A stretch of DNA of 64,000 nucleotides from Euglena gracilis (lineage: Eukaryota), in assembly GCA_039621445.1 (NCBI GenBank), contig CP154954.1:33643455-33707454 (forward strand), given 5' to 3'. Under the pieces are notes generated by a model that saw only the letters and a program-made list of their open reading frames with translations, did not search any database and was not told the origin of the DNA. The position numbers and the translations under genes were made by a program. Below are positions 1,164 through 63,827 of this stretch, piece after piece. The stretch's first letter is position 1. The number at the start of each line of letters is the position of its first letter.

Positions 1164-1167
1164 GCAT

Positions 1168-8147: not shown

Positions 8148-8552
8148 CAGGCTTTTGCTTAAGGACCCCCGGGTACTGGCTAGCCAATCGGCTAGACACT
8201 GGAAAAAGTGGACTAGCTAGACCCCCCCCCTCCCCCCCGGGGTCCCCGGACTGGAAAAAAAATTTTCCTCCGGCGCACAGCGCCGGAGGAAAAATGAGGT
8301 TTTTAACAGGTTTTTGGCTGATCTTGCTCCAAAAATTCCCAAAAATGGCCAAAAACGGGCATTTTTGGCCATTTTTGGGGGTCCCAAAAAAATTTTCGGC
8401 GCTTCGCGCCGGTCACTGGAAAAAATTTTTCCACTAGCTAGCCCTGCCAGCAGACCCGGGGGGGTCTGCTAGAAAACCCACTAGCCAAATTTGGACTAGC
8501 TGCAGTCCAGCCCCCCCAGGGGGGGTACTGCAATCCCTTAAGCAAAAGCCTG
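8148..8552. mobile_element. hAT-like MITE
   Basis: TIR CAGGCTTTTGCTTAAGG / CCTTAAGCAAAAGCCTG; perfect 8-bp TSD GTTGTGGG. Second copy at 23324-23726; a further right end at ~13370-13489. Confidence 0.9.
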
Positions 8553-9724
8553 GTTGTGGGTGAAAATTTCTTTTCAAGAATCTTGGCTTTTTTCATTCCT
8601 GGACCATTTGAAAGCAAATTTCAGATGGTTTCAACCAGAAGAGCGATCACAATTGGTCGTTTTGCAGATTTTTTTATGAAATTGCCCCCCCCCAAAAGCA
8701 AAGGAAAAAAGGCTGGGTTCGATATAAGGAGAGGGGGGGTGGTCCGGACCCCCCCTGCGGGCCAGGGGGGGGGGGGTGGGGGGCCCACCTAAACAGTGGC
8801 GCGGTCAGGGTGACCGATTTGGCCCGGCGCAAAGCGCCGGGCCGAAAATTTTTGACCCCCCCAAAACGACCAAAAGTGCCATTTTGCGCACTTTTTGGGC
8901 AAAAATTGGCCAAAATGCAAAAATTTTCGCTTCGCGCCGGAGGAAAAAATTGTCCCTTTTTTGGGGTGGTCCCGGGTACCCCCCCGGGTCGGGGTGGGGG
9001 GGGGGGTGGGCCAGGAGGGCGGTGGGGGGGGACACCCCCCACCTAAACCATGTATGCCCTCCTTATATCGAACCCTGCTGGACCCCCCGGGGTAAATGCG
9101 ATGTCGCCCCTCGATCGAAAGCTCTTTTCATCAAGACGTCCAACGATGGCTTCAGAATTCAGCCACGACGCACAGATCTCTTATTCCGAAATTCCGGAAA
9201 ATTAAACAGAGCCTGACTTCACTCAGACATTACATGGAACCTGCAGCAGGTCGGTCGATCTGACTGAAAAATAGCTTTAATAAGGTTCGCGAAAACCCAA
9301 AAGTTGCGAATCCATGAGCTAAACAATAATCTCGAATTACAATCTGGACAAAAACAACAGGAATAGAAATGAAGCCAATTTCTCCTGTCATTTTCTCCGG
9401 CGTTTTTTTTCACCCAGAAATTTTTACACCCTTTGTTGAGCTTTCAGTGTAATCAAATCTCAGACACAAAAACACAGGGTTGTGAAATGTGGTCAGTTTC
9501 CGGGGTCTTCTTTGCATGAAAAGAAACCTCAAAGAAGACCACCACAGAAATCGTTGCGAAAGATCTTTATCACAAGAACCACAAAATGGCCACAATTTCC
9601 GAAATTTTAATTTATTTATTCATTTTTCCAAATTGAAATCTACCCAACATTTTTTTTGTGTTTCTTCCCAGTCATTTTTGTTTCCCATCATTTTTTGTCT
9701 GGAGCACAGGTTCCAGGTGCAGAG

Positions 9725-9975
9725 CAGGGGTTTTTTTAAAGACCGGGGGGGAGGGGGGGTCCCTGGAGGGGGGACCCCCCGGAGGGGTCCCGGGGGACCC
9801 ACAAAAAAATGGCCGAAAAATCGCGAAAAGTGCTAAAAATAGCATTTTTTCTGCGCCTGCAGCGCCGAAAAGTATATCCCACCCCCCTCCGGGGGGACCC
9901 CCCGGGGGGGGGGGGGGCTCGGCCGGACCCACCCCCCCCTGCCCCCCCGGGGTCCACGACTAAAAAAAAACCCTG
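9725..9975. mobile_element. hAT-like MITE
   Basis: CAGGGGTTTTTTT...AAAAAAAAACCCTG; flanks GTGCAGAG / GTCCAGAG (7/8 TSD match). Related to 63545-63827. Confidence 0.7.
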
Positions 9976-12900
9976 GTCCAGAGGTAGTTTGGTGACCCTC
10001 CCAGGTCGGCGAACATTTCAAAATATCTGGCACCAGGCTTCCTTTTTTTTTTAAAAAAGGAGTACCAGGGATCATTTTTAAGGCGAGAGTTTTCGAAAAG
10101 GTTACCCCCCTGGTCAGGACACAAAACTGACTGCAGTGACCCCTGCCTGCTGTATCAAGCATCCCATAGCACAAGGCCACCCCCTGGTGGCAAGATGCCT
10201 GCTGTGTTCAAATCCCCCCCGTGGCCCAACTCAGAAGATTGTTCTCAGCTGGCTGTGTGGTGAATGTCACCGCGGCAATTACTCACGGGGTTGGTTGGTT
10301 CGTAGTCATGCCAATGTCCTGAACCATGTCAAAACAAAATTGGATATTTTCAACATTAAAATTGATCAAAAATGGCCTGCCGGCTTCCCCTCCGTCCCCC
10401 AACAGGAACCGGCCGGACCCACCCCCCTCCCCCTCCCTCCCCCCCAGGGTTTCCAAGACAAAAAAAACCCTGGCTGGGAATTTTTGATTTGGAAAAATTC
10501 CCCATTTTCGGCCCCAATTCTTCCTTCAAAATTTCAATTCAAAATGCCCCCCCCCTGCTGGGGACATTTTGGGGACAGCTTAAAAATTGGGCAAAAAAGG
10601 ACAAAAAAAAGAAGTGGCAGGGACCCGGGAGGGCACAGCCGCCCCCGGACAGCCAAATTTTCACCCATTTTTCCCATCTCCCTTAGAACCCTCATGCGCA
10701 TCAGAGGGGGGGGCACTTGCCAGTGGGGGCACCAATTTTTTCAACACCTCGGGGCGCCAACAAAATGGGACAGGTTTCCCAAATAGATCTGATTCATTTA
10801 CACAGCAGGGAAGCACACCGTGATTATGCCCCGTACTTCTGTTCCACCTTGTCCGCATCTGCAAGGTCATCCACCACCGAGCCAAGCAGACGGATCAAGG
10901 TGTCGGGGGCCGAGGGGGAAGGGCGAGGCGGGGCAGCAGGCAGCGACGTCCAATCCACTTGTGCCGCAGAGGCCTGGGGGATGCAACGGAATAAAACCAG
11001 AGGGAGAAGCGTTGACATTGGACTGGGGGCAGGGAATTTCGTCAGTTCCCAGGGGGTGCAGCCAGCTGGCCCTCACCGGGCAGGGTATCAATTGAGCGGG
11101 GAGGGGGGGCATTCTGGAACCCCCATTCTCCCCTCCGCAAAACCAAATACATTTACCCGCCCCCCCCCCTTGTCGTACGACCGGGTTCCTGCAACCTGTG
11201 ACCGGGGGGTGGTCGTAAATGCGGTTTTTGGGCTGGGCCGCCGGCAACCATGTCTCTCAAACATCTTCTGCCCCATGCCACTCAGGCAGGGTGGCCCAGC
11301 CTGGGCCACCCTGCCCAGCGAGCTCCACACCCCGGGGGGAGGTCAAGAATGGTTGAAAAGGCCATCCTGCGCGAAGGCCAAGGGCTTTCCTTGGGGGGGG
11401 GGGGGGCGGTTCAGCCAGCCAGCACCTCCCAGCTGGGCGGGGGCAGAAGAACTTCCCATCCCAACACAATGAAAATTCATTGGAAAAATGGACGAAAAAA
11501 TGACCATATTTTGCCAAAATGCGTCGGCTTCAGAGGGAAAAGTGATTTCTGGCATCCTTTTGACCATCGCCCATCCATCCAAAATGCCAAAAAATGCGTT
11601 TTGACTTTTTGAATTTTGGCCCTGTTCGATCGGCCACAGGATCGGTCATTGTCCGTCCCTTGGGCCCAAGGGCGGTCCTCAAGGGGCGCTCCTGAAGGGA
11701 AAATGAAAACTTGCCGTCCCTTATCTGGGCTTGCCTTATCTATCCCCAGGCTGCAAGGACTCTGCAGACTCCCCGGGGGGGGTGGCGGGTCCACTGAAAC
11801 AAAATTTGGCCCAGCCCGGCGAAGTGGCAGTGGCTGGACCGAAAATTGCGCCGAAATTTTTTTTGAAAACAAGCGTCAAAAATGGCCAAGAATGACATTT
11901 TTGGGGTGGTTTTTGGGTCTTCCACCTCAAATTTCTGGCTGAAAATGCCAACCCAGCTGGAGGTTATACAGGCTTCTTTTCCCAACCCGGGGAGGGGGCC
12001 AAGGGTGGGGGTGCCTTGTGCCATTGGGGATCCCTGGGGGGGGGGGGGAGGGAGGAAGAACCTCCGATGCAAATCCACATGCCGGCCGACAAAACCAACC
12101 CTTGAAAAACCCTGCGGGTGGGGGGGCCAAGCGAATTTGGCACTTGTGAAAAAGCCGTCTCAAAAATGGCCAAGAATACTTTTTTTTTTTTAAGTGCTCA
12201 CCAAATTTTGCGGCCCAGCTTTGGTTATCAGGGGCAATCGGGGGGGGGCGAGTCCACAAAGGGGGGCCTGCTTGAGAAGCACAAAAGGCAGCCAATCAAA
12301 GGGGGGAAAATTCGTGCGGGCCGTGGAAAAAAAGATTTTGCTTTTCCCTCCCCTTTCTCCCCCAACCTGCCCACCTCTCCCAATTTGCCCCTTTGTTTAT
12401 TTAAAGTCATCAAAATTTTTTCCTGTGAAATAACTGGGAAGGGGTGGGAACACAAAAAAAAAAAGCAGAACTGTGTTTTGCATCATTCTCCTGCCAGTGT
12501 GAGAAATCATTCAAAAAGAAATTCTCAGACAGCCAATGCGGAACTCACCTTCGCCAAAGCAGCTGTTTTCTGCGGCGGGCGGCAGCTGCACTCCTGTTCA
12601 CCACCTGGTTGCACACCCTCCAAGATATATCCTCCACCAATGGATGGGTCAACCTTGCAAAAGGAAAAAAGGAGAGCAGTGCCCAGTGCAAAACACAAAA
12701 ACCAAAACAAAAATTGCTGAAAACAGCTTAGGAATTTGAGAAGGGGCCAGTGAAAAACTCCCCCCTCCCTGGACACTCGGGGGGGGAGTAGAATATGGCT
12801 GCCGGGCGAACTTCCTTAAAACTGTTAAACCAATAACGGGCTTCCCCACGTGAGGAATCGGGGGTGCATTCACTGGTGAACGCCACAGCAACTGTGAATG

Positions 12901-14470
12901 GTTCACTGTGTGAACAGAAAAAAAAAAAGGACAATTAATAAAAAGGATTCCAGTCACTGGTGATGTCCTGTGCACCATGATCTGTCACGGTGTGCACAAC
13001 GGGTGCACTGGGATCAGATCGGTTCACGTTTGGTTACGGTGTGCCCTGGGATCAGATTTGGATCCGGTTTGGTTAGTCAGCCGAAGGGGGGGGGTTATAG
13101 GTGGGGGGGGGGGGGGCCCGGTCCGGTTGGGAAAATCTGGACCCCCCCCAAAATGACCCCGAACCCCCCCCACAATGCAAATTTTCCCAATTGGGAAGAA
13201 TTTGGCATTGGGTGATGCAAATGAGGGATCGGGAAGGATGGCCATTTTTTGATGCTGGTCGGTCTCAAAAAAAAAATTGAAATTGAAAAAAAAATCAGTT
13301 ATTGGTGGTCTTGCAGCCAAAAAAATCGTCCCCTGGCGGATTTTCGTTTTAATTTTTCCCCACTAACATGCCTGCTAGCAGACCCCCCCCCCGGGGGGTC
13401 TGCTAGAAATCCCACTAGTCCAGCCCCCCCGGGGGGGGGGGGGGTTGGTTACGGGGTTTGGGTACTGCAATCCCTTAAGCAAAAGCCTGACAGCCACGCT
13501 GCATGGTATTCTATTTCAGAAATTCCCCAAAATTGACCAAAAGGAAAATATTGCAAAATTTACCCCAATTTCAGGTCAAAAGGCCAGAAATTGGGGGTTT
13601 TTGTTTAATGAATTCCCTTTGGCCAATTTTGGGGATTCTTGGAAATAGAATACCATGCAGCATGGCTGAAATCCAAGCTTCATTTCTGCTGAAAGCCCTT
13701 GAGAAGAGCTTTTAATCAAGGGGCAACATGGCAAGTGAAACAGTGGAATTTCGAATTCGCAAACAGGGTCGGAAAATAGGATCGTCGATTTTCGGAGCGT
13801 TGCGCAGTGTGGCTGAGTTCTGTAAGTACCAAGGGAAAGATCTTGGGGAGAGCGATCGGTTGATATGCCTATGGCCCTGAACTTTGGGATTTGACAAATC
13901 AAGGTGTCAAATTTTGAAATACGATTGCTGAAAACAGGAGCTCCATGCACTATGGATGAATTCTGTTGCCATCTGTCGAAAGCCCTTGAGGAGAGCTTTC
14001 GATTGATGGGTAACATGGCTTCAGAAGTGCAGAATCTACCAATTTTGATCGGTGACAAATTCCGACCAAAATCGCCAAATGGGTATTTGGGGAAGCCGGT
14101 GCCTAGGACGCCGGTTCGGGCTACCACCCGAACCGGCGTCCAAGACACAGTTTTCGATATAGAACCCTGACCCTTGCTGAAGGCAAGCGGGGACCTGAAA
14201 ATACCATTTTCAAGGGAGTTTGCCTGGGTCAGCACGGAAACCAAAAACCCGACCTTCCATGGGGCGGGCAGGCAACCTTTGTCTCAAGAACCAGCTTGTA
14301 ATCTTTCAAGGGGCTTTCCTTGTGAAGCTCTTCCACTTGCTTCCTGATCTCCGCCAAGTCGTTTCCACTTGGCTCCTGCAGAAGGAGGGAAGATCCTTTT
14401 TGAAAATTCGTTTGAAAATTCGGTTTCTTAATCCAAGCTGATACCCTAACACCAACTGCTCAAACCCCAA

Positions 14471-18034: not shown

Positions 18035-18053
18035 TAGTCGGCCGACTACCCAC

Positions 18054-19250
18054 TCTAATGTACTAACGGGTCAAAACCGCCGACTTTTAAGCCCCCCCCC
18101 ATGAACAAAATCCAATGCAAACTAGTCGGTGGCTAGTCGGCGGTCATAAAAATGGTCTGTGTCGGGCCCAAAACACCCGGAAATGGTCCGGATGGGTCCA
18201 AATAAGTGTCTTACGCCTAAATAAACACCCCCAGATGGAAATCTTTGGTCGGTGGGGGTCGGTGGGCCCTTGATGGGGGTCCGGAGTGGTAAAAAACCAA
18301 TGATGAAACAGGTATTACATGAAAATCCTTTAGAAATGCAAGCATTCTGCATCACGAGAGGCAGAAAACTCCCCCCTCCACCCCAATCCGAGCCTCAAAT
18401 AACAAAATCCCTTCTGTGTTGGCAACATACTCGGGGGCTAAGTCGTTTTTGTGGCTCACTTTGGCATAGGCGGGGGGGGGGGCTCCACCCCCCCACCCCC
18501 CCCCTCAAATAACAAAATCCCTTCTATGTTGGCAATAGACTTGGCTTGATAAGACCTTTTTTGGCAATGTTGGCAATAGACTTGGAGGGATAAGACCTTT
18601 TTTTTGTGCAAATTTTGACTTTTCTTGAAAATTCAATGGTCCGGATGGGTCCAAATAAATGTCTTACGCCTAAATAAACACCCCCAGATGGAAATCTTTC
18701 GTCAGTGGGGGGGTCGGTGGGCCCTTGATGGGAGTCCAAAAAGGTAAAAAACCACTGATGAAACAGGGATTACATGAAAATCCTTTAGGAATGCAAGCAT
18801 TCTGCATCACGAGAGGCAGAAAACTCCCCCCTCCACCCCAATCCAAGCCTCAAATAACAAAATCCCTTCTGTGTTGGCAACATACTCGGGGGCTAAGTCG
18901 TTTTTGTGGCTCACTTTGGCATAGGCGGGGGGGGGGGGCTCCGCCCCCCCCCCGCACCCCCCCCCTCAAATAACAAAATCCCTTCTATGTTGGCAATAGA
19001 CTTGGCCTGATAAGACCTTTTTTGTGCAAATTTTGACTTATATTGAAAATTCAATGGGGAGAGGTGTACTTTTGCCAAAAGTGGCCCAAAATGGACATTT
19101 TCCCCCAATTTTTTTTGCATATTCACCCCCGATTGGGGGGTTCTGGAGCCATTTGGGTGGGTTTTGACTGGTTTTGAGGTGATTTAGACAAAAAAAATTT
19201 CCCAGGGGGGGGCTTAAAAGTCGGCGGTTTTGACCCGTTAGTACATTAGA
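18054..19250. mobile_element. nested TIR element with an internal ~470-bp duplication
   Basis: ~45-bp inverted repeat CTAATGTACTAACGGGTCAAAACCGCCGACTTTTAAGCCCCCC; 18182-18550 is duplicated at ~18636-19020. Confidence 0.65.
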
Positions 19251-19700
19251 GTGGGTAGTCGGCCGACTTGTCGGCCGACTGCCCAATTGGTCTGCCGACT
19301 AGTCGGCCGACCAATTAGTCGGCCGACTACCCAATTGATCGGCCGACTACCCACTACCCCCCCCCCCAGTCTACCGTTTGGCACTCCCGGGGGGGGGGGG
19401 GGCTCCCAGCCCGAATTTGGGCTACTGACTGGATTTGAACTGGAAATGACCCAAAATGCATGGTTTTCGAGAACGGGGGCTGGGGGGGGGGGTCAAAAAA
19501 CACTCATTTTCGGCTGGAAAGCAGTTTTTCCAAGTCTGGGAGGCCGGCCAGAAAAGCCTTTCTCGATTTTTTAACTTTTTTTTGTCTGAAATGGTCAAAA
19601 ACAGCGGAGTCGGAAGCCTGCCGCGCTTTTAGGGCCGTTAATCGGCCATATCTCGGGCTATCAGATAGGGCGTTTCAAGGGCTTCCCAATTCAGGTTTCC

Positions 19701-22268: not shown

Positions 22269-23323
22269 AGAATCTAAGGCGAAACTTGTCGTGATTTTTG
22301 GTGCTGTTTGCTTTAAGATGCTTAATGAACCACACAGAAACAATTTTTCTCTTCGAATATCAGAATTGTGAAATTAGGATTTCCCAGCGACAAGAAACTA
22401 GAGCACTGTGGCCTGCTGCCGCCCCCCCCCCCCCCCATAGCAAAATCCCCTTTTGTCACGGAACAGGCGCGAGAAGAAGATATTAACTCAAGAAAATCGA
22501 CAGAAGATATCTCAAGAAAATGAATCTCTTTTGGAAGTGTCGGTCAGATGCCCCTGGAGTCTATCGCCCCCATTTTCCGTTTTAGCTGCCGACGCGCCTG
22601 GCCCGTGTTCCAGCGCTTTTGTGGTGCTTTTGTGGTCCAAAATTGCCATTTTGGGGGTGCTTTTTTGGTTATTGTTCGCCACTTGACCGCCACCCCCAAA
22701 CAGCAGAGTCAAAAATTTTGGTTAGGGTTAGGGTCAGGGTTAGGTGGCGGTCGAGTTGCGAACAAATACCTGTTCTTTTACCTGCCCCCCCCTTGTCGTA
22801 TGACCGGGTTCCTGCAACCTGTGACGGGGGCAGACAATTGCTTAAGCACTGACCAACCCCCCCCCCCCGCGGGGGGGTGACTGGTTTTTTCAAAGTGACT
22901 GACTGGTTTTTGGCCCGGACCCCTCCCCCCCCCCCCGGGGGGGGGGTCGGCCAGGAGTGGGCAAAAGTGGCTTGAGTGACCCCGGCGCCGAAGGCGCCGG
23001 AAAAATTTTTTGGGCCTAAAATGGCCTAAAGTGACTGGAAAGTGGCCGTTTTACTGAGTGGCCGACCCCCCCGGGGGGGGGGTAGTGACTGGCTGGTTTT
23101 TTGAAAATGAGTGACTGACTGGTTTTTTAAAAAGTGGAGTGACCCCCCCTCCCCGCCCCGGGGGTCGGTAAGCAATTGTATGGACGGGGGGGGGGGTCGT
23201 AACACCCCCATAACCTGCAACCTGTGACCGAGGGGGTAGTCGTAAATGAGGAGGCGGTCACAGGTAAAGTGGTGTTAAATTTTTCGCAACCTGCAACCTG
23301 TGACCCGGGGGGGGGGGGGGGGG

Positions 23324-23726
23324 CAGGCTTTTGCTTAAGGACCCCGGGGGGGGGGGTACTGGCTAGCCAATCGGCTAGACACTGGAAAAAGTGGACTAGC
23401 TAGACCCCCCCCCGGGGGGGGGGGGGGGCCGGGGGTCCCCCGGACTGGGAAAAAAATTTTCCCCCGGCGCTGTGCGCCGGAGGGAAAATGAGGTTTTTAA
23501 CAGGTTTTTGGCTGATTTTGTTCCAAAAATTCCCAAAAATGGCCAAAAACGGGCATTATTGGCCATTTTTGGGGGTCCCAAAAAAAATTCCACCAGCTAG
23601 CCCTGCTAGCAGACCCCCCCCCCCGGGGGGGGGGGGCTGCTAGAAAACCCACTAGCCAAATTTGGACTAGCTGCAGTCCAGCCCCTCCCCCCGGGGGGCT
23701 ACTGCAATCCCTTAAGCAAATGCCTG
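23324..23726. mobile_element. hAT-like MITE (copy of 8148-8552)
   Basis: Near-identical sequence, CAG...CTG ends, flanked on both sides by G runs of at least 8. Confidence 0.85.
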
Positions 23727-25631: not shown

Positions 25632-25642
25632 ACCTCGGAAGG

Positions 25643-25798
25643 ATGGGTGCCATCAAGACACTCAAGCAGAAGCTGAAGTACGGAAAGAAGATGAAGCAGA
25701 ACAGGCCTATTCCGTACTGGGTCCGATTCAAGACCAACAGCAAGCAAAGATACAACGAGAAGCGGCGTCACTGGAGGAGGACCAAGCTCAAGATGTAA
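25643..25798 (+). CDS. RPL39: 60S ribosomal protein L39 (eL39), 51 aa
   Basis: [51 protein letters not shown] contains the eL39 signatures KQNRPIP.W and RRHWRRTKL, and has the typical length. Confidence 0.97.
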
Positions 25799-50500: not shown

Positions 50501-52075
50501 CTGCACTCCCACACCTGTGTGCATGGGGTTGTGGTGTGTGCTTGGGTGTGGTTGGGGTGTTCGGTGCCGTCCGTGGCATGTTTGCAGAACACAACGGTTC
50601 AAGCACTCCTCTGTCAACCTTCCATGCTTGAGGGGGAGACAACTCCAAATGAAAATGTTCTGGAGCTTGGCTTTGGGTGGGTAAAGCTGGTGCGAATTTG
50701 TTTGCCAGGAAAAAACACGTAAACCCCCCCCTAATAGTGCTGCGGGGCCAATAGAGCTGCGGGTCCAAATAGTGCTGCACCCCCTGCCGGATGAAGCGAG
50801 CGTCCAATAGTGCTGCACCCCCCCCAAATCACAGCAATGTGAAATGCGTAGAAGCTGGTGCAGCCTACTGCAGGCACCTTTTTTAATCCGCAGAGAGGGG
50901 AAAGGGGGCAAATTCCCACCCAAGCAACTCACAAAAGTCGTCCGAAGATGAACCACACGACCTCACTAGCCTCAGAGAAGGACATTGAGTAGACAAAAAG
51001 GGTGCCTGTGGTGATAGGCCGGGACTAAGAGGCACCCAATCCAATAGTGCTGCGGGTCCAAATAGTGCTGCACCCCCCCCCGCCGGAGGCGGCCGTCCAA
51101 TAGAGCTGCGGGTGCAATACTATTTTGGGGGGGTTTAATCGCTCCCAGAGATGTGAACAAATGTTCAACGGGTTCAGGCTCCTTCTTTTGTTCTTGACGT
51201 GTGTGTGTGTGTGTGTGCGCGCGCGTGCACCTAATTAAGTTTGTTTAGGTGCCAGGGGATTCTGAATGTATGGATGTACGACAGGATGGCGCACAGAAAC
51301 CTGCGGTATGAAAGAAATCTAACGTGTTCGACACAAAAACAAAAAGCTTCGATGATTACTGAGTTCCAGGTGCTGGTACCGACCAATGCCCTCCTGCAAA
51401 TAAAACCCCTTTCCCTTTGTACTGTATGAACTACCTATGCTCTGGGGGTTATTCCGTTTGTCTCTTGTCCTCGCGCCATTATCGACCACTTTTGATTGAG
51501 TATGGCGAAATATTGCAGGCAACCAGGCGGCCATTTCAAGAGGCTTGGGGGACTAACAGGCCACCATTCTGGGATTCCCATGATGAACTCCATGCGGCTG
51601 CAAATTCAGCGCCCAGAGATGAACCAGCCATGCGGCCACCGTCAAACGGGGGGCTGATAAAGAGTTTTGGAGGGGTTCGTGATGGCCCGAAATGACTGCG
51701 CCACGGTGCCCCTCGGGGAGAGAGGCGCGCCACACCGCTGGGCGAGGTGGAAGATGATGCGGGGCGCCGTCAGCTCCGCGGGGCCCGACTGCAGCCGCCG
51801 CGCCGTCTCCGCGATGCGGCCCACGGCGGTGGCGCCGTCCCGTGCCGCGTCCTCGAAATGGACCTTCACCGTCTGGATGATGGCCTGCTCCCCGCCAGGC
51901 CGGGCCTTTCCCTCTGGGGGTAGAGGGTAAAGGGGGAGGAGCAGCGCTGTCTCCAAAAAGGGCGGGCCTGCCCCCAGTCGGAGACCTTCCGGGTTGGGGG
52001 CGGCCCCGGGCCAGGCTTGGGCTCGCACGTCTCCGACAGGGACGCCGCAGGCGCACGGAATGCCACTCACGCAGG

Positions 52076-52113
<38 letters not shown>

Positions 52114-53149
52114 GGCATACACCCACCCACCCATGCCCGGGCCTGATCCTGACGGCTGGCAGTGGATAGAAATAGCCCAGTTGCAGCTGCTCCACTCCTT
52201 CGGCGGCTCTAATGCCATCAGCCTCTCCAACCCTCCCCCCTCGCCGCACCGCCCACCCCGACCTCTCCGGAGTCCCTGGGGGCGATCCGGCTGAGGAGGG
52301 ATGGGCCAGTGGCTGGGCTCGGGGACAAGGCCACGGCGGGCGTGGCGCCGGGGTGGCCTCAGGCTTTGGAATTTGGGGACCGAGGCGGCGCGGGGCCGGG
52401 GGAATGCCCCTGCAGCCCGCCGCGGCGGACAGCAGACCGCGAGGGTGGAAGCACAACACAAAAACCGGGCATATATGAAGCCGACCCATCGGCCCAACGA
52501 AGCCTGGCCGGGAAGGGGAGGGGAAGATGAAGTGGGGCGGGAAGCCACGCGGCAGGGATGGTTCTCTTGCTGTGACAGTGGCTTTTGTTTGCCGTTGGGT
52601 CACACAATCCGGACAAAAATGACGGGAAACAAAAATGACGCGAAACCACCCATTTCTCCCACCGTTTTTTCCCATACCCTCCCAACGTTGTTTGGGAGGA
52701 GCTGACTAATCAAATTTCACACACAAAAAGATGGGGTGTGACAGATGCTCAATTTTGGAGTCTGTTTAGGCATGCAAAATTACAAGCAAGACACCCAGAG
52801 GACTATTATGACCATTTCTTTTGGAATCTCGAGTTGCCTTTTGCTGAAAAAAATCATCACAAATGATAAAAAAACCAGCACTTTTGGTGAAAATTCGAAT
52901 TTTTCTAACAATGAATTTTCCGGATCCAAACTGTTTCAAATCTGATCAGCTCACCCAATTTCCTGGTTGTCCAGGACATCCCCGTACAGCTGAGATCAAC
53001 CCCTGATCCACCCCAAAGGAAACAACGGGGGTTTCACCCACCCGCAGGGCGGACGCCGTCAACCATCGCTGGGTGTCAGACACATTCGCCCGGGGCGGGT
53101 CAGCCCCGGGGGTCGCTGGGGACGCTTCGGGGAACAGTTTGCCGAGGTC
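29540..53149 (-). CDS. large multi-exon host gene, Ala/Leu/Pro-rich and probably alpha-helical, function unrecognised; 5' end not located, 3' exons uncertain
   Basis: GC-rich exons that join in frame within runs: 53149-53042, 52409-52263, 52208-52155, 52066-51974, 51890-~51737; ~50471-50337, 48205-48100, 47712-47584; ~40998-40929, 38691-38590, 38083-38001, 37571-37452, 37017-36795, 36401-36320, 35586-. Additional likely exons with unresolved joins at ~45880-45800, ~45620-45475, ~44800-44670, ~41850-41760, ~41215-41090, 34.1, 33.7, 31.1 and 29.6 kb. Confidence 0.7.
32613..33086. mobile_element. TIR element (GGCAGC ends)
   Basis: GGCAGCAAGAGTCTACTTGCCCC / GGGGCAAGTAGAATCTTGCTGCC. Confidence 0.7.
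38135..38531. repeat. CA-rich minisatellite (ACACACAGCACACATAT-like) inside a non-conventional intron
   Basis: Directly visible. Confidence 0.9.
45110..45325. repeat. (TACA)n microsatellite
   Basis: Directly visible. Confidence 0.95.
46653..46906. mobile_element. MITE with 22-bp TIR and 8-bp TSD
   Basis: GGCAGCCATTGACTTAACGACC / GGTCGTTAAATCAATGGCTGCC; TSD TTAGAAAC. Confidence 0.85.
48949..49317. mobile_element. TIR element of the CCAGTCAGTCAC subterminal family
   Basis: GGTCCGGACCATACCATTGCTTA / TTAAGCAATGGTATGGTCCGGACC; relatives at ~22840-23178, ~37620 and ~41270. Confidence 0.6.
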
Positions 53150-54552
53150 CTGCGGGGACAGGGGGCAGGGGGCAGGAGAGGGACAACCCCCCCCCACGCC
53201 ACTCATCACTACAATTGTGAAAAACTCTTGAGCTCTGATGCGATTCCCGTCGATCTGTTGGTGCACCGTGACAGCCGAAAACACAAAAAACGGGCTGAAT
53301 CTCACTTTTTGCGACGAGAAATGAAGCAAACAATTTTCCTTCGCTTGCGCAAAGAAACTCTAAAACTTAAATGCGAATTATGCTGCCTGAGTGTACCTTT
53401 CTTCTTAGACGGCCGGGAATGCACTTTTCTTGTTGAGTCACAAAATTTAGGCAGTTTTAGTGAAAATGCGCATCCGCGCATTTTGGACGCGGAGTGCGCA
53501 GGTGCGCATTCTGAACGTGTCGCGTGCGCTTTGAAACCAGCATCCAAATCGCGTAACGGGAGCGCTCTAATATTTTGACGCGTGCCGAATGCTTGTTTTC
53601 TTTTTTTTCACAGTGTGCTCTGTATCGCATTTGGCTACGAAGAAGATTGTGAGGTGACTGCCCCCTGACGTCAGCTACACCCCCACACCCCGCCGAGGCA
53701 GCAATATTGCGGGATGTTGGAGATCCGAATTGGGGTGATCTGGATGGAAAGGGGTGGTGATGTGTGGGGTCGGGGCCACCATGCTGCGGTGGGTCACCTG
53801 TTTCCAGTTGGAAGGTTCTAATTGGTCCGGTGCGTGTGAGAGCAGGAGGGGATGCGACCTGGGTGGACGTGTGGGTGTTTGACCGTGTGGCAGACCCGGG
53901 TGGTCTGAATGCGCAGACGCGCATTCAGACCAATGGTGTGAAGAATGCGCACCTGCGCATTGAGGATGTCCGGATGAATTTTGTCCCCCCCTCCTTTCAG
54001 GGCTGGTGCACGGGTGCCGGTGTGTTGGTGATGGTGGTGGTTACCACCCCCCTCCCCCCGAGGCGCGAAGGACTGCTTTCCAGTCGGGCTCGTGGTTTGC
54101 AGGCCCAGTGTTGGTACGGGGTGTGCTACATGCTTACCTGGCGGTTGTGTTCCGACTGTCTTTTCCTGTTGAGTGTGGTTTTGAACTGTGAGTCAGCCAC
54201 CCCCGCAGCTGACGAATGGAGCGGCCACGCACGACACTGGATCCACTGTTGTCACACGCCAACACCTGGCTTGGCGTGCCGTAGCTGAGTGTGAACGTTG
54301 TTTTCTGCAGCTGGCCATCACACCCACAGGCTGCAGTCATTCGATCACAACCGAGACGACCTCAGACCGGCTGTCAGACCGTTACACCTTGTACTGCAGA
54401 ATGCGCATGTGCGCATTGTGTCGTACAATGTACATTACGTCTCCCTCAGTCGTATGTTACCACCAGATCGTACGATGAATGCGCACATGCGCATTGTTGA
54501 GACGTTACGTGGTAGTGTCCTTTGACCGGTTTGTACCCCTTCTTACGGATGT

Positions 54553-57060
54553 TTGTTTGTCCTTGGCTGCTGTCTCGGCGGCTCCCGCCAGTCGGCAGTC
54601 CCTACACCCACCTCAACCTCCCCATGCCCCGCCAACCCCAGACACTGTAACGGGCCAGGCACGCGCACACCCCCGCCGCCCGCGCCTGCGCCACCGCGCA
54701 AGATCATTGGCCGGCTGGTGCGGGACACCTTCGTCGCCACGTACGCCGACTTCGTCACGGCCGTGGTGGACCCGCCCCACCCCCTGTACGAGCTGGTGGT
54801 CCTGGTGGCCCACACCCGGGTCCCGTTCCGCCGCTCCCCGGACAGCGACCACCTCCTGGCCGAGCTGACCCGCCGCCCCCGCCGACAGCGCACGGAGATG
54901 CTGCTGCGGGACGCCTGGGCCTCGTACCGGGCCCACCGCCAGCACGCCTGCCCGCGTGCCCCGCAGCCCCGCGTCGCCGCCGAGGACGTCCCCCTGCCCG
55001 CCACCCGCGCCCTGGGCCGCTTCCTCCGCCCCAGCGGGGTCCACCCAGCCGCCCTGCTGCACTCCGCCGCCGACCGCGCCCGGCTGGCCCTGGCGCGGCA
55101 GGCCGAGCTGTGGCGCGACCTGGCCGGGAACCCCGCGGTGCTGTGGTTCGACAACTACTACAAGCGGCGGTACCGCAACACCCCGCGCCAGATGGAGGCC
55201 CACCTGAACGTGGTGGTGGTGGCGGTGCTGCCGCTCGTGGACCCCGTGCCCCCGTTCCCCGGCCACTACTCCCTGGAGCAGCTGTGGCAGCGGCACCTGC
55301 TGGTCGGTACCGAGCTGGCGGAGTACGGCGGCGGACGGCTGCGGGAACGCATCCGGGCGGTGGCCGACTGGGACCTGCCGGCGACGGACTTCCGGGTGCC
55401 CCTGGACGTGAGCCGGCCCCGGGTGGAGGCCCTGCCGTGGCGTCCGTTCCTCATGGGCGACCACGCCGTGTCGGCCCAGGTCGGCCTGCTGGAGGTGCTG
55501 CGCTACCTGCAAGGCTCGGTCGCCGACCACCTCGCCACCCCGGTGCCGGTCCTCGTGGACGAGAACATCTGGTACCGGGTGGCGAGGCTGCTGTACGGCC
55601 GGGAGCTGCAGCGGTGGGACGTGTCGGCTGCCCTGACGCCCCTCCCCATGCTGTACGCGGTGTGGCACCCCTACAAACAGCTGGTGCACACCATATACCG
55701 GCGGTTCCTGCCCCTCTTCCTCTACGTGCAGAGCGGCACCCTGGCCCGAAGCGGTACGGGCAGCTTCCACCGGCCCAACCTACAGACCCTGGAGCGGTGG
55801 CTGGGGGCCCTCCTGCTGGTGCCACGGGACACCCGATTGCGCATCTGCGCATTCCGGGACCGTCTGGTGCGTCGCATGACCGTGGTGGAGCGCGAGGCGG
55901 CGCAGCGGGCGACGACCGTGGCGGAGCGACGGGCCCAGCTGGAGGCGGCCGAGGCCCACGTCCGGCAGCAGCTGGTGCGGGTGTGCGCCGGGCAGGCCCC
56001 CTGGTCCCGGGCCGAGCGCGCGATCGCCGGTGTGGAGGAAGCGGAGGCGGCGCTGCAGCGGGCCGAGTCTGCACTGCGGGATGCCAACCAGGTCGTGCGG
56101 ATCCTGCGGGCGGACAGCACCATCCTGGCGGCGCTGGCGGATCTCCTGGGGGAGTGGGCTCCGGCGTGTCTGGTCCTGGGGGAGATGGTGCGCACCTGCC
56201 ACTGGGAGCTGCGACAGTCTGGCACCGGTGGACACGCCCTCGAGGTGCTGCATGGCAGCCTCGCCCTGCTGCTGCGTCTGGAGGCCCCCGGCGAGCGCCG
56301 GACGGAGTACATCCGGACCGTGGGTGTGGCCATGCTGTGCTGGATGCCGTGGCACGCGGCCCTGCCCGCGGCCTGCTTCAGCGAGGCGGCGCTGTCCCGG
56401 CTCGGGCAGGAGAACGAGCGGCACCCCCTGGCGGTGAGCACGGATCAGGTGGGGGACCTGTACGCGCTGCTGGAGACCGGTCGGCCCGGTGTCAGGGCGC
56501 TGCGGGGTGGCAACGTGGGGCAGCGGTGGGTGGACACGGTGCGCGGACACGTGGAGGACCTTCTGGAACGGTGCGGTGCGGAGCAGCGGCTGCCCGTGGT
56601 GCCCGGACCGGGGGTGGCGATTGAGTCCGTGTCCGACGTGGTCCGCTATGTGGCCCGGCTGACGGAGCGGGAGTACTCCGTGGGCGAGCCCTGGCCCGCG
56701 GACTGGAGCCACCCCGCCAGCCTGCTGTCCGTGGACCTCACCCCGGAGGACGCGACGGCCACGATGCGGTACGCCTTCCTCGCCCTGGTCGGGGACAACC
56801 TGCCCAACGAGGACGTGCAGCGGGAGCTAGATGGCCTGTGCGCTCGGCGGAGCGAGGAGGAGGTCGTCCAGTACCTCCGGGCGTGGGACGGCGTGGCCGG
56901 GCGCGTCCGACCGGAGGCGAAGCCCAAGGCCCAACCAAAGGGCAAGCCGAAGGCGAAGACCCAGCCAGTCGCCGTCCCCCCGGTGCAACCAGCTGTTCCG
57001 AACTGGCGGGGCATATGGAAGAGGATCGTTTGTCAGTCAATACCAAAGGAATGTGAATGA
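54553..57060 (+). CDS. putative DDE (RNase H-fold) transposase, Academ-like; main exon
   Basis: Ordered motifs VLWFDN (D 55150), PVLVDENIWY (D 55558), LYAVWH (H 55666), a helical/coiled-coil insert, TEYIR, and FSEAALSRL (E 56383). Probable small upstream exons at ~54001-54113 and ~54208-54390, and a decayed downstream exon at ~57393-57850. Confidence 0.65.
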   Translation: MFVLGCCLGGSRQSAVPTPTSTSPCPANPRHCNGPGTRTPPPPAPAPPRKIIGRLVRDTFVATYADFVTAVVDPPHPLYELVVLVAHTRVPFRRSPDSDHLLAELTRRPRRQRTEMLLRDAWASYRAHRQHACPRAPQPRVAAEDVPLPATRALGRFLRPSGVHPAALLHSAADRARLALARQAELWRDLAGNPAVLWFDNYYKRRYRNTPRQMEAHLNVVVVAVLPLVDPVPPFPGHYSLEQLWQRHLLVGTELAEYGGGRLRERIRAVADWDLPATDFRVPLDVSRPRVEALPWRPFLMGDHAVSAQVGLLEVLRYLQGSVADHLATPVPVLVDENIWYRVARLLYGRELQRWDVSAALTPLPMLYAVWHPYKQLVHTIYRRFLPLFLYVQSGTLARSGTGSFHRPNLQTLERWLGALLLVPRDTRLRICAFRDRLVRRMTVVEREAAQRATTVAERRAQLEAAEAHVRQQLVRVCAGQAPWSRAERAIAGVEEAEAALQRAESALRDANQVVRILRADSTILAALADLLGEWAPACLVLGEMVRTCHWELRQSGTGGHALEVLHGSLALLLRLEAPGERRTEYIRTVGVAMLCWMPWHAALPAACFSEAALSRLGQENERHPLAVSTDQVGDLYALLETGRPGVRALRGGNVGQRWVDTVRGHVEDLLERCGAEQRLPVVPGPGVAIESVSDVVRYVARLTEREYSVGEPWPADWSHPASLLSVDLTPEDATATMRYAFLALVGDNLPNEDVQRELDGLCARRSEEEVVQYLRAWDGVAGRVRPEAKPKAQPKGKPKAKTQPVAVPPVQPAVPNWRGIWKRIVCQSIPKECE

Positions 57061-58322
57061 ACGGTGTGAATGCGCATGTGCGCAATCAGTGCTGAATGCG
57101 CATGTGCGCAATCACTGCTGAATGCGCACATGCGCATTCAGCAGTGATTGTACTAGATGTTCTGAATTGTGTTGGTTTTGTCGACTCACTCGTGGTACTA
57201 AGTGGACAGTGCAGCCGCTGTGTCATGGGTTATTCCACTGGCTACTCGGTGTATGTCATGACGGCTTCTGCCAACCAGTCGCCTTCTTGCCTTGACCGAG
57301 AGGTCATTACAACAGAATGCGCATGTGCGCAAACTAATTATATACGACAGACTTATCCGAAATCACTTGTAATGCGCGGATGCGCATTACAAGTGATTTC
57401 GATCGTTGGGAGTACACAGACCCACTGAACGACCCGGTGCGGTGTGTGACCACGTTTTCTTTTTCGCGAATTGACTTGGCAAATGCCCCGCCAGCACCCA
57501 CCCGCCATCGTCCTTCCGCACGGCGCAGCCCCTGTTCGGCGGTCCGTGTTCGAGCAACCCGCTCCCCCCGCGCTGCAGGCGGCGGGCCAGCCCGTCCCGG
57601 CGGCTCCGCGGTGGTGCGTCCCGGGCGTCCCCCACCTCCGTGGCGTCGGCCCAGAGGCCCGGGCCGGTCTCAGCGCCCCCCACCTGGCGGGCCGCATCCC
57701 CGATCCCGTGCCGCCCGCCACGGGCCCCGACGTGTACCTCCCAGCCAACCCCGACGAGGACGTCGCCTGAGCTGGGGCCCCGTACCGAGCGGGGCACCCC
57801 ACCACCCGGGACACGGAGGCGCTGCACTCATCCGACGTTCTGGAACGATTGGGAGGCCTGGGGGGGTGCCCCCAAGTGTGCCGAACACCGGGGCGGAAGC
57901 CCCGGGTCTTGCGGAGCCTCGTTTCGGGCAGCTGGGCACAAATTTTTCAGCCAAAAAAACTCCGCGTACAGTACGCGATTCTGCGCGACTGGCATTGCAC
58001 ACGTCAGAGGGTGTAATTTTGTTCAGTGATTTTCGACAAAAACAAAACCTCAGGACTTTTCAAAATTGTGCATCCGAAATATTTCTACTTCCCCTGACCT
58101 GTTCCGAAAATCGGCACCGCAGCAGGCGCCGCCGCTGTCGAAATCGCCTTTTCTGGCCCTTTCAGAGGCATGCTTAAAAAAAAAATCATTTTGGATGGTT
58201 TTTTCCTCGGGAGGGCTGGGGGATGCATCAATTCAAATAAATGAACTGAGGGCTATAGGGGTTGCCGCCCCGTACACAGAGAGTGATGTACCATTTCTCG
58301 ACCGCAGGGCACCGGCACCCCC

Positions 58323-61300
58323 ATGTCCCGCCCCCCATCGCCAGCCCCCTCAGCCCCCGACGTGCCGGAGCCCCTCGAGGCACCCCCCACCCAAGGCCCG
58401 GCAGAGGGGGAGGGGGAGGAAGCGGAGGAGGAGAGGCGGAGGAAGAAGAAGAAGCGCGTGGTGGAGGCCATCGCGAGCTGGGCGGGCGGGAGGCCGGAAG
58501 ACTGGCTGCTGCCGGGAGAGCAGCGCATCGAGCTCACCAAGGTGCGCTTCGACCTGGCCTGCAGAGAGGGGCAGGTGCGGTCCTTGGTGGCGGAGGACGT
58601 GGACCGCGTCTACGAGGCGATGCGCACCAACCCCCCCCCCCACCGTGCAGAGAGTCGTGGTGTGGGCGGCGGACACCATCGGTGTGTTTGCGCACGTGCG
58701 CATTGTTTTGGTTGTGAGTTGCTTTGCATAGTAAATTTATGGATGGATATGCATTGAGTGAAATGAGGAATGCGCACCCGCGCAAACATGCACTGGTTTT
58801 GGTATCCATACCTGGCTTGCAGTTTCTTTCCACCCCCCTGCCTGCCTCGTGCGTCTCGTCACAGACCGGGAGTACGTGGTGGTCGGCGGGCAGCACATGA
58901 CGGCGGCACTGAAGAAGATGGCGGAGGACTTCCTGAAGGAGCGGCGGGAGGTGCCGGAGCAGTACCGGTGGGTGCTGGCGAGGGTGCTGAAGCACGGCAC
59001 CCCGGTGGCGATGCGGCAGCTGGCCGGCGGCGACAACCAGGCGCAGCAGATGCAGGTCCACGGCCTCCCCCTCAGCAGCTTCGCGGCGCTGCTGCTGGGC
59101 GACGACGTGCGGGCGGAGGCCAACCCGAAGGTGAGGCTGGCGGTGGCGCTGCAGAAGGCGGGGTACGACCGGACGCAGAAGACGGTGTGCTTTGTGCTCT
59201 ATGGGGGTAATGGATGATGATGCAATGTGGGTGGTCAGAGTACGGGAGATGGAATGCAACAGCCTGTGTGTGGCATCACATGATTGCGCACATGCGCATT
59301 CTTCTCACATAAGAGAAGAATGCGCATGTGCGCATTTGGCCCTTTCTTTGGAATGACCATAAACCTGCCTCCCGCCTCTCACACTCAGGACATGGCCACC
59401 AAGGCGTACCGCCCCCTCCAGCGCTGGGTGGAGCAGCTGGGGCAGCAGGCCATCGAGGCGCTGCGGAAGCTGGAGGCGACGAAGAAGGGCCTGACGGTGT
59501 CGGCGCTGCGGTCGCTGCGGATGCTGATGACGCCGGAGGCGCGGGCGGCGGTGGTGCCGGCGCTGCTGGGGGAGAGGCCCAAGCTGCAGGACTTCGAGAA
59601 GGCGGTGAGCGACGCCTGCCTGGAGATGTGGGTCAACTTCCACTGGACGGAGGCCAACCGCTTCATCCACCCGGACGTTGGTGTGCTTCTGTCACCCACC
59701 CACGTTTGCATTTTGTCCCATCTAATGTTATGGATGCATCTTGCTCTGGACATTGATTGCTCTGTGTGGGGTGTACTGCATGTTATGGTTCGATTGCGCA
59801 CCTGCGCATTCTCCCCACCACTCCCGTTCCCTGCCCCTCGCAGTGGAGGACAGGGCTGCCAGATGGAGATTCAAGGAGGCCGTCGCACTCCGCTATCTGG
59901 TCGTGCGGCTCGGGCGCTGGGAGTGGCGGGAGGACGCGACGTGCCCGCCCTTCACGGCGCTGGCCACCGCCGAGGTCTGGACGTCGGTGAAGTTCGAGGC
60001 GCTGCGGGAGAGCCTGGCCGCCCCGCGCCCGAGACCGAAGGTGGTGGTGACGGAGGACCCGGCGCACCTGGCCTGCGTGGACTACGCGCGGGAGGTCCAG
60101 GGGCAGCAGAAGACCCTGGCGAGAGTGTTTTGTTACTCGGCGGCGTCGGAGGCGGGGGTGCCGATGCAGGCGGAGCAGGCTAGGGTGCGGATGGTGGTGG
60201 TGCAGGCGGAGAGGGGGGTGGCGATCGCGCCGCAAATGTACGTCGTGGCGGACGACGTCCCCGTGGTGGTGTTCGGGCCGCCGGCGCTGGCGCTGGCCAC
60301 GGTGGAGCACATCCACCGGCGGGTGGCCACCAAGCACCGGCTGGATGTGGACTGCTGGGTGAGGACCGAGGTGGTGGAGTTCGGGGCGCAGCGCCACCGG
60401 CCGGTGAAGTTCTCCCTCCACATTCTCCTGCACGACACGGAGCTGGACAGGCTCAAGGTATGTGTCTGCGACCCCGTCCCTGAACCTCTGAGTCAATGCC
60501 ATTACATAAACGCCGTGAGTCGGGATGCATAATCCGCCTGGAGAGTGCTTGGATGGATCCCTGGCCGTGAATGCGCACCTGCGCAATCCTCCCTTCATTG
60601 GGATGATTGCGCATGTGCGCATTCTTATTTGCGTTTGAAAATTGTTGCATCCCATATCCTTGTTGGCATTCCATATGATGTTCGAATGCGCACCTGCACA
60701 ATACCTACCCCCTTTGCTACCCCTGCTCAGGTCCCTCCCGTCATCTTCTGGGACCGCGAGTCCAACGGCTCGCCCGACGCACTGCACTGGGCCGTGGTGG
60801 ACTACCTGTGGCGCCGCGCTGTCCGGCGCCCGGTGGAGGTGGACAGCTTCCTCCTCCTCCAGCTCCCCTCGGCGGTGCGGGTGGGCCACCTCCTCAACTG
60901 GACGCCCGACCCCCCGCACATGGTAGCGGTCCTGACGGGGAAGGAGAAAGTGCAGCCGGTGGAGTACACCGAGCACATCCGGCACGCGGTGCAGGAGGCC
61001 TGCCCGGTGGACAACACCGGGCTGTGGAAGCAGCTGCAGGACGCCGTGGAGAAGTCCGAGCCGCTGTGGACGGTGGTGGAGTCCGAGGTGCTGAAGCAGC
61101 TGCTGGAGGTGAAGGCGACGGAGGCCCAGGCCCGGAAGGAGGCCGTCCAGTGGCGGTCGGAAAAGAAGAAGGAGCGGGCGGCCAAGCGGGCCCCACAGTG
61201 AGGGAAGGCCAAGGCCAAGCCCAAGGCCTGACCCAAGCCCAGCACCTCCCAGGGGGTGCCTGAGTCCCTGCTGCGCACGGCCCGGATCTACGAGCGGCGG

Positions 61301-62150
61301 ATCCGGAGGAACATCGCCAGGGAGGAGGGGCGGCCCCCACCGGTGTTCACGTCGGATGAGGAGGAGGAGGATGAAGAGGAGGAGGAGGGCCAGGTGGCCA
61401 GTGGATGGTCGTCGCCGCTGTCGTCGCACCCCAGCTACGCAGAGGGGGAGGAGGCCGAGGCGGAGGCGGAGCCCGAGGCCCCGGAAGGCCCAGAGGAAGC
61501 CTCTGCACAGGTGGTGGAGGGTGAGGGTGGCGAGGAGGGGGAGGGGGAGCAGGGGGCCGCCCAGGCTGCGGTGGAGCCAGAGACCGTGGTGGAGTTCGAG
61601 GAGGAGGAAGGGGGCAGGGGGAGGGAAGAGCGGCGAAGGCAGCCCGTGGTCCCGGTGCCCCCAGTGGAGGAGGTGGAGGCCCCAGAGCCCACTCCCCCCC
61701 CCGCCCCGCCCCGTCCCCAAGAAGCCCAGCGGCCCCCCACCCCTCGGCATGATCCGGCGCCCCGGTAGGCAAGACTGTCCCCCCGCCCCGGAGGCCCTCA
61801 CCCCCAAGAAAGAAGAAGCGTGGTACGCAGGAGGAGGAGCCGGAGGCGACGCCACCCCGCAAGCGGAGGACCTCCCTGCTCTCCAGCCCCAGCCCAAGCC
61901 CCAGCCGCCCCGAGGACCCGCCGGGCGGCAACGTCCCCAGCAGCAGCGCCCGCGCCTCCTACTCCTCCAGCCAGCCCCCCTCCCCCAGCCCGCAGCCCCC
62001 GGCCGGTGCCCGATCCCAAGCCCAGTCCCCAGCCCGCGGCCCCCAGCAGCAGCAGTCCCCCACAGCGCGGTCCACCCTGCAGGAGCGGACGACCAAGTTC
62101 ACCCTGCTGCCCTTCCCGCCGCCGCGGAAGGAGAAGTGAGACCACAGGGG
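58323..62150 (+). pseudogene. spliced gene with an N-terminal NLS-like tract and ParB/Srx-like domain and an acidic/Pro-rich tail; this copy is lesioned
   Basis: GT-AG introns 58682-58864, 59185-59388, 59681-59843 and 60458-60730 join in frame. Motifs GQVRSL...TNPP...VVVW...EYVVVGGQHMTAAL. One extra C in the C-run 58631-58641; in-frame TGA at 61199 and 61229; TAG at 61766. Confidence 0.7.
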
Positions 62151-63544
62151 GGTGCACTCCTCTTCAGACTCCCAGCCCAATGCAACATTGCGCATGCGCG
62201 CATTCTTCTACTCACAGTGTATTGATTGCGCACATGCGCATTGTTTTCCCATGCACACCCCTCTCTTCCCCAGAGGCAATTCCCTCCCATTCTGTCAACC
62301 CCTCTCGCATGCACAGTCGACATAGCCGCCGGTGGGTACACACGGTGCACACAGCGTCCGGGCCAAAAGAATGCGCACATGCGAATTCATCCCCTCTCCT
62401 GAATCATGCATGCCTTTTGGATTTGGTTTACCGCTCAGTGCACGCACACCGGCCAGCAGCACACACCCCAAGCGTACACTTAGGCGGCCCACTGGACCAG
62501 GGTGGCACACCCGAGGCCACTCGGGGGTTCACCCCTGGGAGGTGGACCAGGTGCGGGCACACCCCTCCCTCTCCCCATGGAAGAGACACAAAGGCCAAGG
62601 GGAGTGCACCTACCAGCGCGTCCAGCGCTGCGCCGGGGCCGGCAGCGGCGGGGCGTCGGGCGGCGCAGGCGTGCGGCCAGAGGGCCGCAGTGTGTGCAGG
62701 GCACGGCGTGCCTCGGAGATCCCCTGTGGGGCCATGGGACCCTGTCACACCCCTCCGTCAACCCTATACCCCCGGCGAACCATATCCACGCCGCTCCAAC
62801 CGTGTGTCGGACCGCCCATCCCTCTCTATACCCCTGGCACTCTCCCTCTCCCTCCCCCCTATATCGGACCAAGGACCAAAGGACAGCGAGGGAAGGTGAG
62901 GGATGGGACCGGCAAGGGAGGGAAGGGCGTCTCCAGCCAAAGGCCCCTGCTTTGCCTCCAAATCAAAATAAAGGCTGGGGAGGGGGGAGGGGGGTGAATG
63001 CGCACCTGCGCAATACCGAGGCCACCGGGGAATGGGGAAAGCCGGCGGGTACCGTACCTCCACCGGACGAGGGTGCCGCCTCGAAACACAGCGTTTCGTG
63101 TCGCACCGCCTTCGCTTGACGAGGTGTTTCCCCCGGCCGGCGGAGGTCAAAAACAGGTCTCCTCAAGGTCAAAAAAGTCGGATTCCTCAAAAAAATCCTC
63201 GGACACCGGAAGTCGTGGTACACCTTTGTTCTCGATCACCTCGGCTTGTCGGGTCGGCCGCCCCGTCGGGTGGTAGTGACTCACTCGGTCAAAAAAGAAT
63301 GCGCAGGTGCGCAAACTTAGGCAAAAAGTGAAAAGTGCATTCCCGGCCGTCTAAATTCTTACGCCTGTTGGGGGAGCCACTCCCTGAAATGTTGAATTTT
63401 CACATATTTTCTTTAAATAAAAGGTTGGCCATAATTTATTTCCCGTGATTCCACCCCCGTAATTTCTGTCTCCCATACCCCCCTGGGCCGATCAATCAAA
63501 AATCCAAAAATAAGACCCCCCTTGACGGCGCGAAGCGCCGGGGA

Positions 63545-63827
63545 CAGGCTTCTTTTTAAGTCACCTGACCCCCCCCCCGGGGGGAGGGGGGGTGGGTGGG
63601 TGGGTCCGGGCCGGACCCCCCCCCCGGGGGGGGGGGTCCCGCGCCGGAGGCGCTGGGTATACCTTTTCGGTGCGAAGCGCCGAAAACTTTTGAAAATTGC
63701 CTTTAACGGGCCCGATTGTGAGGGGGGGGGCCCTGGCCCCCCCCCCCGGGGGGGGGACCCGCGTCAACCTGGCCTGGGGGGGGGGGGGAACCCCCCTCCC
63801 CCCCCGGGGGTCTTAAAAAGAAGCCTG
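63545..63827. mobile_element. hAT-like MITE
   Basis: TIR CAGGCTTCTTTTTAAG / CTTAAAAAGAAGCCTG; perfect 8-bp TSD GCCGGGGA. Confidence 0.9.

Follow-up and report, generated by a model that had tools for sequence, protein, structure and literature searches.

Euglenid genes contain nonconventional introns, the ends of which carry a paired CAG/CTG code at set distances from the splice junctions. Here, we describe a 64,000-nt stretch of Euglena gracilis DNA (GenBank assembly GCA_039621445.1, contig CP154954.1, positions 33,643,455–33,707,454 of the forward strand; this whole stretch is called the window) that holds several transposable elements of the miniature inverted-repeat type (MITEs), whose ends and 8-bp target-site duplications (TSDs) fit the geometry of that code. 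The conserved pairs of 55 introns are located at +4 to +6 and −8 to −6 and are mostly CAG/CTG, and the pair at +7/−9 is G/C in 31 of the 55 (PMC4770533). In the same set, the intron starts with a purine in 51 cases and the downstream exon in all 55, and the upstream exon tends to end with a pyrimidine. A larger set of 4,498 ss-invariant introns from E. gracilis gave the consensus CCAGG at +3 to +7 and CCTG at −9 to −6; a further 11,653 nonconventional introns of this species are ss-variant, with borders that cannot be fixed (PMC11170887). Experiments in Euglena agilis showed that mutation of CAG or CTG abolishes splicing, that a length of 3 nt is required of the 5′ spacer, and that the 3′ spacer is 5 nt, with one additional nucleotide being tolerated; fully synthetic 50-bp sequences with CAG/CTG and the spacers are also spliced (PMC12501133). 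The cutting rule that the initial annotation of this DNA had applied is published and experimentally shown (PMC12501133, PMC4770533, and PMC11170887).

The origin of these introns has been discussed for some time. Of the nonconventional introns, 69.1% are "slidable" by virtue of direct repeats at their junctions and were left out of the motif analysis (PMC12501133), and the excised introns are reported as circular RNAs (PMC12501133 and the 2024 review PMC11282704). A MITE-like origin was proposed in 2014 and repeated in 2016 (PMC4770533), in 2018, in the 2024 review (PMC11282704), and in 2025 (PMC12501133); the general suggestion of such an origin in the initial annotation has, accordingly, been in print since 2014. 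The review labels CAG/CTG "TIR" and the junction repeats "TSD-like." The authors of 2014 (Milanowski) noted that no transposable elements were then known in euglenids, the origin was still described as unclear in 2025 (PMC12501133), and papers up to that year state the reason for the 3+5 cutting geometry as open. Full-text literature searches and term look-ups in the 2024 review and the 2025 paper, with closed-access papers and supplements outside their scope, found neither a statement that 3+5 equals the TSD length nor a named euglenid MITE family. The general idea of a MITE origin is, therefore, already published, and the 3+5=8 link and the concrete MITE families described below are apparently new.

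The sequence shows that four elements in the window, and a further one or two, belong to the non-autonomous DNA transposons (MITEs) and have CAGG...CCTG ends and an 8-bp duplication; no strand is assigned to any of them. The element at 8148–8552 (405 bp) has a 17/17 terminal inverted repeat (TIR), CAGGCTTTTGCTTAAGG, and is flanked on both sides by the TSD GTTGTGGG (8/8; 8140–8560 with flanks). The element at 63545–63827 (283 bp) has a 16/16 TIR, CAGGCTTCTTTTTAAG, and the TSD GCCGGGGA (8/8; span 63537–63835). At both sites, the duplication is exact at 8 bp and at no other length among 2–12. The ends of the 251-bp element at 9725–9975 read CAGGGG../..CCCTG, and its TSD, GTGCAGAG/GTCCAGAG, matches at 7/8 positions (span 9717–9983). 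The 403-bp element at 23324–23726 belongs to the 8148 family, to which it is 87–93% identical over the aligned parts, and the flanks of the two copies are different. Its own flanks, GGGGGGGG/GGGGGGGT (span 23316–23734), lie inside a G-run, which makes the TSD unreadable and the 7/8 match uninformative. These four elements are located where the initial annotation had placed them. A fifth element, 49680–50277 (598 bp), has the ends CAGGCTTCTG../..AAAGAAGCCTG and the TSD ACCCCCGC/ACCCCCTC (7/8; span 49672–50285). In all five well-supported elements, the fourth base is G and the fourth-last base is C; the fifth position extends the start to CAGGC at 8148, 23324, 49680, and 63545 and to CAGGG at 9725. 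A possible sixth element, 48666–49379 (714 bp; CAGGC../..CCCTG), has the TSD GCTCCGGG (8/8; span 48658–49387) and a weak TIR (11/16). Within it is nested an inverted-repeat element (48947–49317) with 26-nt arms starting with GGGTCCGGACCATACCATTGCTTAGC. The 3′ end of a truncated 8148-family copy was found at 13371–13489 on the + strand, with the last bases ..CCTTAAGCAAAAGCCTG at 13489. Adjoining this copy is a 178-bp near-perfect hairpin (13491–13668; arms of 85 nt, 79% complementary) that starts with CAG and ends with CTG and whose own flanks match at only 4/8 positions.

The evidence for these elements lies in the combination of their features. CAG..CTG pairs with a TIR of at least 12/14 numbered 54 in the window, against a simulated mean of 9.7 and maximum of 16 (first-order Markov). 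A flank match of at least 7/8 accompanied 6 of these 54 pairs and none of 972 controls made by moving the right flank 3–20 nt out of register; among simulated TIR pairs, any such match was seen in 2 of 60 Markov simulations. When the TIR was disregarded, exact 8/8 flanks were found for 7 of 72,600 CAG..CTG pairs, as compared with a mean of 2.8 and a range of 0–7 over 30 shifted registers. An 8/8 flank match by itself is not significant, and the evidence is therefore the TIR and the TSD combined. An unbiased inverted-repeat scan (209 pairs) gave an exact 8-bp TSD only at 8148, 63545, and 46653. The last of these, 46653–46906, is a 254-bp MITE with no assigned strand, a 29-nt TIR starting GGCAGCCATTGACTTAACGA (first bases GGCAGCC), and the exact 8-bp TSD TTAGAAAC (span 46645–46914); it serves below as a contrast. 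The terminal motif matched 18 times, with 4.0 matches expected. A metagenome scan with the 16-nt TIR returned 117 loci, with a single match in each of the rows listed; blastn revealed no similarity between them and the MITEs, and these hits were dismissed as chance.

The elements are high-copy mobile DNA with a boundary at CAG. In a DNA-like run (X12), the word depth reached 252,010 in the bin 63409–64000, compared with ~37–43 for unique pieces, and in 23 contigs the similarity broke off exactly ahead of 63545, where the element begins. X12 also contained forms of the 63545 MITE with internal deletions, with joints 63563→63800 and 63578→63643. Two loose-end consensus strings obtained from the reads and contigs over 45400–64000 do not occur in the window. 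The X12 word depth was very high across 48.5–51.6 kb as well (16,000–76,000).

The published cutting rule, with one cut 3 nt ahead of CAG and the other 5 nt past CTG, was applied to the elements, the flank being taken as the TSD. In all five CAG-terminal elements, the rule excises the element plus 8 nt on either strand. Where the TSD is perfect (8148 and 63545), the product after excision is the empty site, letter for letter, and for the 8148 MITE, this identity between predicted product and empty site holds on either strand. The 3+5=8 arithmetic of the initial annotation is thus right. The predicted RNA excision intervals are 8145–8557, 9722–9980, and 63542–63832. CAG falls at +4 to +6 and CTG at −8 to −6 in 5/5 CAG-terminal elements, and contiguous pairing of the ends extends over 5–18 bp among the five. 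Predicted RNA folds (minimum free energy and centroid) contain terminal stems, with z values of −5.1 for the 63545 element, whose stem begins at the CAG, and −3.9 for the 9725 element.

Based on this geometry, we propose how such an element might become an intron. Under the published code, one cut lies 3 nt ahead of CAG and the other 5 nt past the CTG with which it pairs. Since the TSD is 8 bp, an element that had inserted into an exon and was transcribed would be cut inside each of its TSDs, after the fifth position. Excision would take out the element together with exactly one copy of the TSD and thereby restore the uninterrupted message. Nonconventional introns may descend from insertions of CAGG...CCTG elements with 8-bp TSDs, and the odd 3+5 spacing may exist because its sum is the TSD length. 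We consider it fairly probable that the MITEs with CAGG...CCTG ends and 8-bp TSDs are excisable by the 3+5 code and that nonconventional introns descend from such insertions. More tentatively, although we regard it as plausible, the non-spliceosomal code may be tuned to the footprint that insertions of a single transposon group leave behind, such that every exonic insertion would be erased exactly at the RNA level. Three published observations would be explained by this proposal. The same pyrimidine|purine pattern would appear at both junctions because both cuts would fall between positions 5 and 6 of the copies of one 8-mer. Junctions derived from a TSD would account for the large proportion of introns that carry junction repeats and are therefore "slidable." The third observation is the 8-nt repeat at a recent gain: in E. 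agilis ACOI 323, a gapC intron (intron 4) that is missing in other strains and was recently gained has eight-nucleotide direct repeats (PMC4770533). The initial annotation had looked to young introns with 8-bp repeats and presence/absence polymorphism; the gapC intron supplies one published case of these, and it is a single instance.

Several points weigh against the descent of nonconventional introns from these elements. The authors of the gapC study take the 8-nt repeat as a trace of double-strand-break repair (PMC4770533). The nucleotides at the would-be junctions agree with the published preferences in part: a purine comes first in the would-be downstream exon in 4/5 elements on the + strand and 3/5 on the − strand, and a pyrimidine is the last exon base in only 2/5 on the + strand. 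In the contrasting MITE 46653–46906, CAG is located 2 nt inside the end, and the 3+5 rule would leave four extra bases; the fit, therefore, belongs to one element group and not to all. No copy lies within a recognizable coding exon of the window, and no long ORF (open reading frame) through the five reconstructed empty sites was found. No splice joints were seen at the predicted sites in two raw RNA runs and two contig sets covering 45400–64000, where the RNA depth was 0.2–4; with coverage this low, the absence of joints neither supports nor refutes splicing. The copies in the window are intergenic, and the introner reading is partly supported: it is well motivated and sharply testable and draws on published work rather than on the window itself.

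Three other explanations were considered. Ordinary MITEs with 8-bp TSDs might simply coexist with a splicing code that arose independently, CAG/CTG and the number 8 matching by chance, and we regard such a coincidence as unlikely. An 8-bp TSD is of a common length, and CAG-type (CA..TG-type) termini are common among DNA transposons, which counts for coincidence, as do the other ends and misfit of 46653–46906, likewise with an 8-bp TSD, and the fact that no MITE here is an intron. The match is, however, threefold and joint, comprising the CAGG/CCTG tetranucleotide, spacers that sum to 8, and paired ends, and the youngest known intron carries 8-nt repeats (PMC4770533).

The double-strand-break repair invoked for gapC would create new nonconventional introns that leave short direct repeats (Milanowski et al. 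2016), with the MITEs as unrelated residents. The authors themselves interpret the 8-nt repeat in this way (PMC4770533), and the question is raised again in the 2018 paper. Break repair gives no reason to expect repeats of one set length or inverted CAGG..CCTG ends, and the window holds a high-copy system that produces exactly those features; we judge it decidedly improbable as the source of these introns. The direction might also be reversed, with mobile introns spreading via the excised circular RNA and the intergenic copies being re-inserted introns. Circular forms of excised nonconventional introns are indeed reported (PMC12501133 and PMC11282704). An excised circle, however, would carry the TSD-derived 8 nt, which would be common to all its copies, whereas the flanks here differ between copies and are duplicated at each site, as in cut-and-paste insertion. 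Moreover, internally deleted derivatives are usual in DNA-transposon families, and the two deleted variants in X12 (63563→63800 and 63578→63643) are of this kind. This reversed route seems hardly credible to us.

The coding content of the window bears on the six host introns that the initial annotation had described as restoring the reading frame under the CAG/CTG cuts. These introns could not be located: the one multi-intron gene sits in a TIR transposon, and the four of its introns that were checked read GT..AG. Composition scans, scans of GC content at the third codon position (GC3), and a Pfam search of 30 window ORFs identified a reverse-transcriptase retroelement at 1–5 kb, a single-exon gene for RPL39, and GC3-rich genes at 54.5–61.2 kb; no host gene beyond RPL39 was found by these means. 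The only Pfam match among the 30 ORFs was RVT_1. It occurs in the retroelement (1–4992), in the ORF 159–1163 (E 4.6e-28); the ORF after it, of 1,303 aa (1081–4992), has no Pfam match. The single-exon ORF of 51 aa at 25643–25795 on the + strand, which we take to encode ribosomal protein L39 (RPL39), is the only ordinary host gene recognizable in the window. Rfam and tRNA scans of the window gave nothing.

About six inter-exon gaps are present in the transposon genes at 54.5–61.2 kb, and these may be what the initial annotation saw as host introns. The four introns that were checked (~58682–58864, 59187–59388, 59681–59843, and 60458–60730) admit GT..AG borders under which a single frame stays open. 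The tracts at their 3′ ends consist of 74–81% pyrimidine and 48–63% C, and none of the four has CAG at +4 to +6. The donors are ambiguous inside GTGTGT runs, and the GT..AG assignment comes from sequence alone; the C-rich tracts fit the description of GT..AG introns in E. gracilis. Frame-restoring cuts at CAG(−3)/CTG(+5) were found in every exon pairing tried (3–30 each; further pairs mostly 0–2, with a maximum of 6), and frame restoration is therefore easily met by chance. A brute-force search for nonconventional introns that combined CAG/CTG pairing with open frames was set aside for a similar outcome, as its 1,717 and 1,906 candidates were indistinguishable from noise. RNA reads over 45400–64000, which are of low depth, contained no splice joints for the transposon genes at 54.5–61.2 kb.

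The transposon that contains these genes is ~9.95 kb long (53405–63354) and has perfect 25-bp TIRs, TTAGACGGCCGGGAATGCACTTTTC, at 53405–53429 and 63330–63354 and no clear TSD. Its genes are GC3-rich and multi-exon, with an 844-aa ORF at 54526–57057 and a second gene from ~58323 to 61198. A 786-aa query found 11 homologues of 32–50% identity, which have neither names nor Pfam domains; four of them are on contigs of 10.0–11.0 kb. The X12 depth across the genes is 500–2,300, compared with ~40 for unique pieces, which suggests tens of copies, and 13 X12 contigs diverge just before 53402. A joint 53961→63293, seen in X12 as well as in X1, suggests a derivative of this transposon formed by deletion. 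Because they lie between perfect 25-bp TIRs and have a high X12 depth, the genes at 54.5–61.2 kb are not what is usually meant by host genes. The transposon was considered as the autonomous partner of the MITEs and rejected, as its TIR starts with TTAGACGG and not with CAG. Also rejected was a 12/14 CAG..CTG inverted repeat at 58521–60004 with the 8/8 flank CGGGAGAG (58513–60012): it spans three of the transposon-gene exons and was judged, though unusual, to be a chance occurrence in codon-biased coding sequence. All 19 occurrences in the window of a palindrome, TGCGCRnnTGCGCA (often GAATGCGCAYRTGCGCATT), fall within the 9.95-kb transposon (53495–63300). The sites inspected are located in its introns and near its ends, and three tandem copies are present at 57067–57141.

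Other repeats were noted elsewhere in the window. A 1,233-bp element at 18036–19268 has 64-nt TIRs that are 100% complementary (AGTCGGCCGACTACCCACTC...) and no 8-bp TSD, and nested inverted repeats are dense at 16–22 kb. Long microsatellites are present at 45111–45330 and 28576–28824; the first is an (ATAC)n array with 55 repeat units, and the second is a triplet repeat with a poly-Val or poly-His reading.

With concrete MITE families that have fitting ends and 8-bp TSDs, the general idea of a transposon origin becomes a set of specific, checkable predictions. If the splicing code of euglenids is indeed tuned to CAGG...CCTG insertions, it would form part of an introner system with a non-spliceosomal machinery dedicated to excision, and the predominance of nonconventional, "slidable" introns in Euglena would be explained. 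Genome-wide studies that drop slidable introns would then have dropped the youngest and most informative ones.

Among known transposons, the elements resemble hAT MITEs in their 8-bp TSD, which is exact at 8148 and 63545, and in their short TIRs beginning with CAG. The terminal consensus of hAT elements is YARNG. The CAGGG end of the 9725 element agrees with it (1/5 elements), and the CAGGC ends of the other four fail at the fifth position. No hAT transposase was found by Pfam among the 30 window ORFs scanned, and with CAGGC ends in most copies, the hAT assignment made in the initial annotation is unsupported. Ds, of the hAT superfamily, reportedly acts as an intron in maize, an observation attributed to Giroux in 1994; its removal from RNA is spliceosomal and imprecise. 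The second comparison is with the nonconventional introns of euglenids themselves. [quoted passage not shown] Unlike those introns, the elements described here are intergenic DNA copies with intact TIRs and TSDs, not introns of genes. [quoted passage not shown] The elements in the window share with introners a multi-copy status, as seen in the copies at 87–93% identity, the X12 depth, and the 18 motif matches against 4.0 expected. Introners are spliceosomal, and their GT/GC..AG borders are partly derived from a 3-nt TSD in the same account (PMC11282704), whereas removal of the elements here would use the non-spliceosomal CAG/CTG code. A cut inside both copies of an 8-bp TSD would set them apart from introners.

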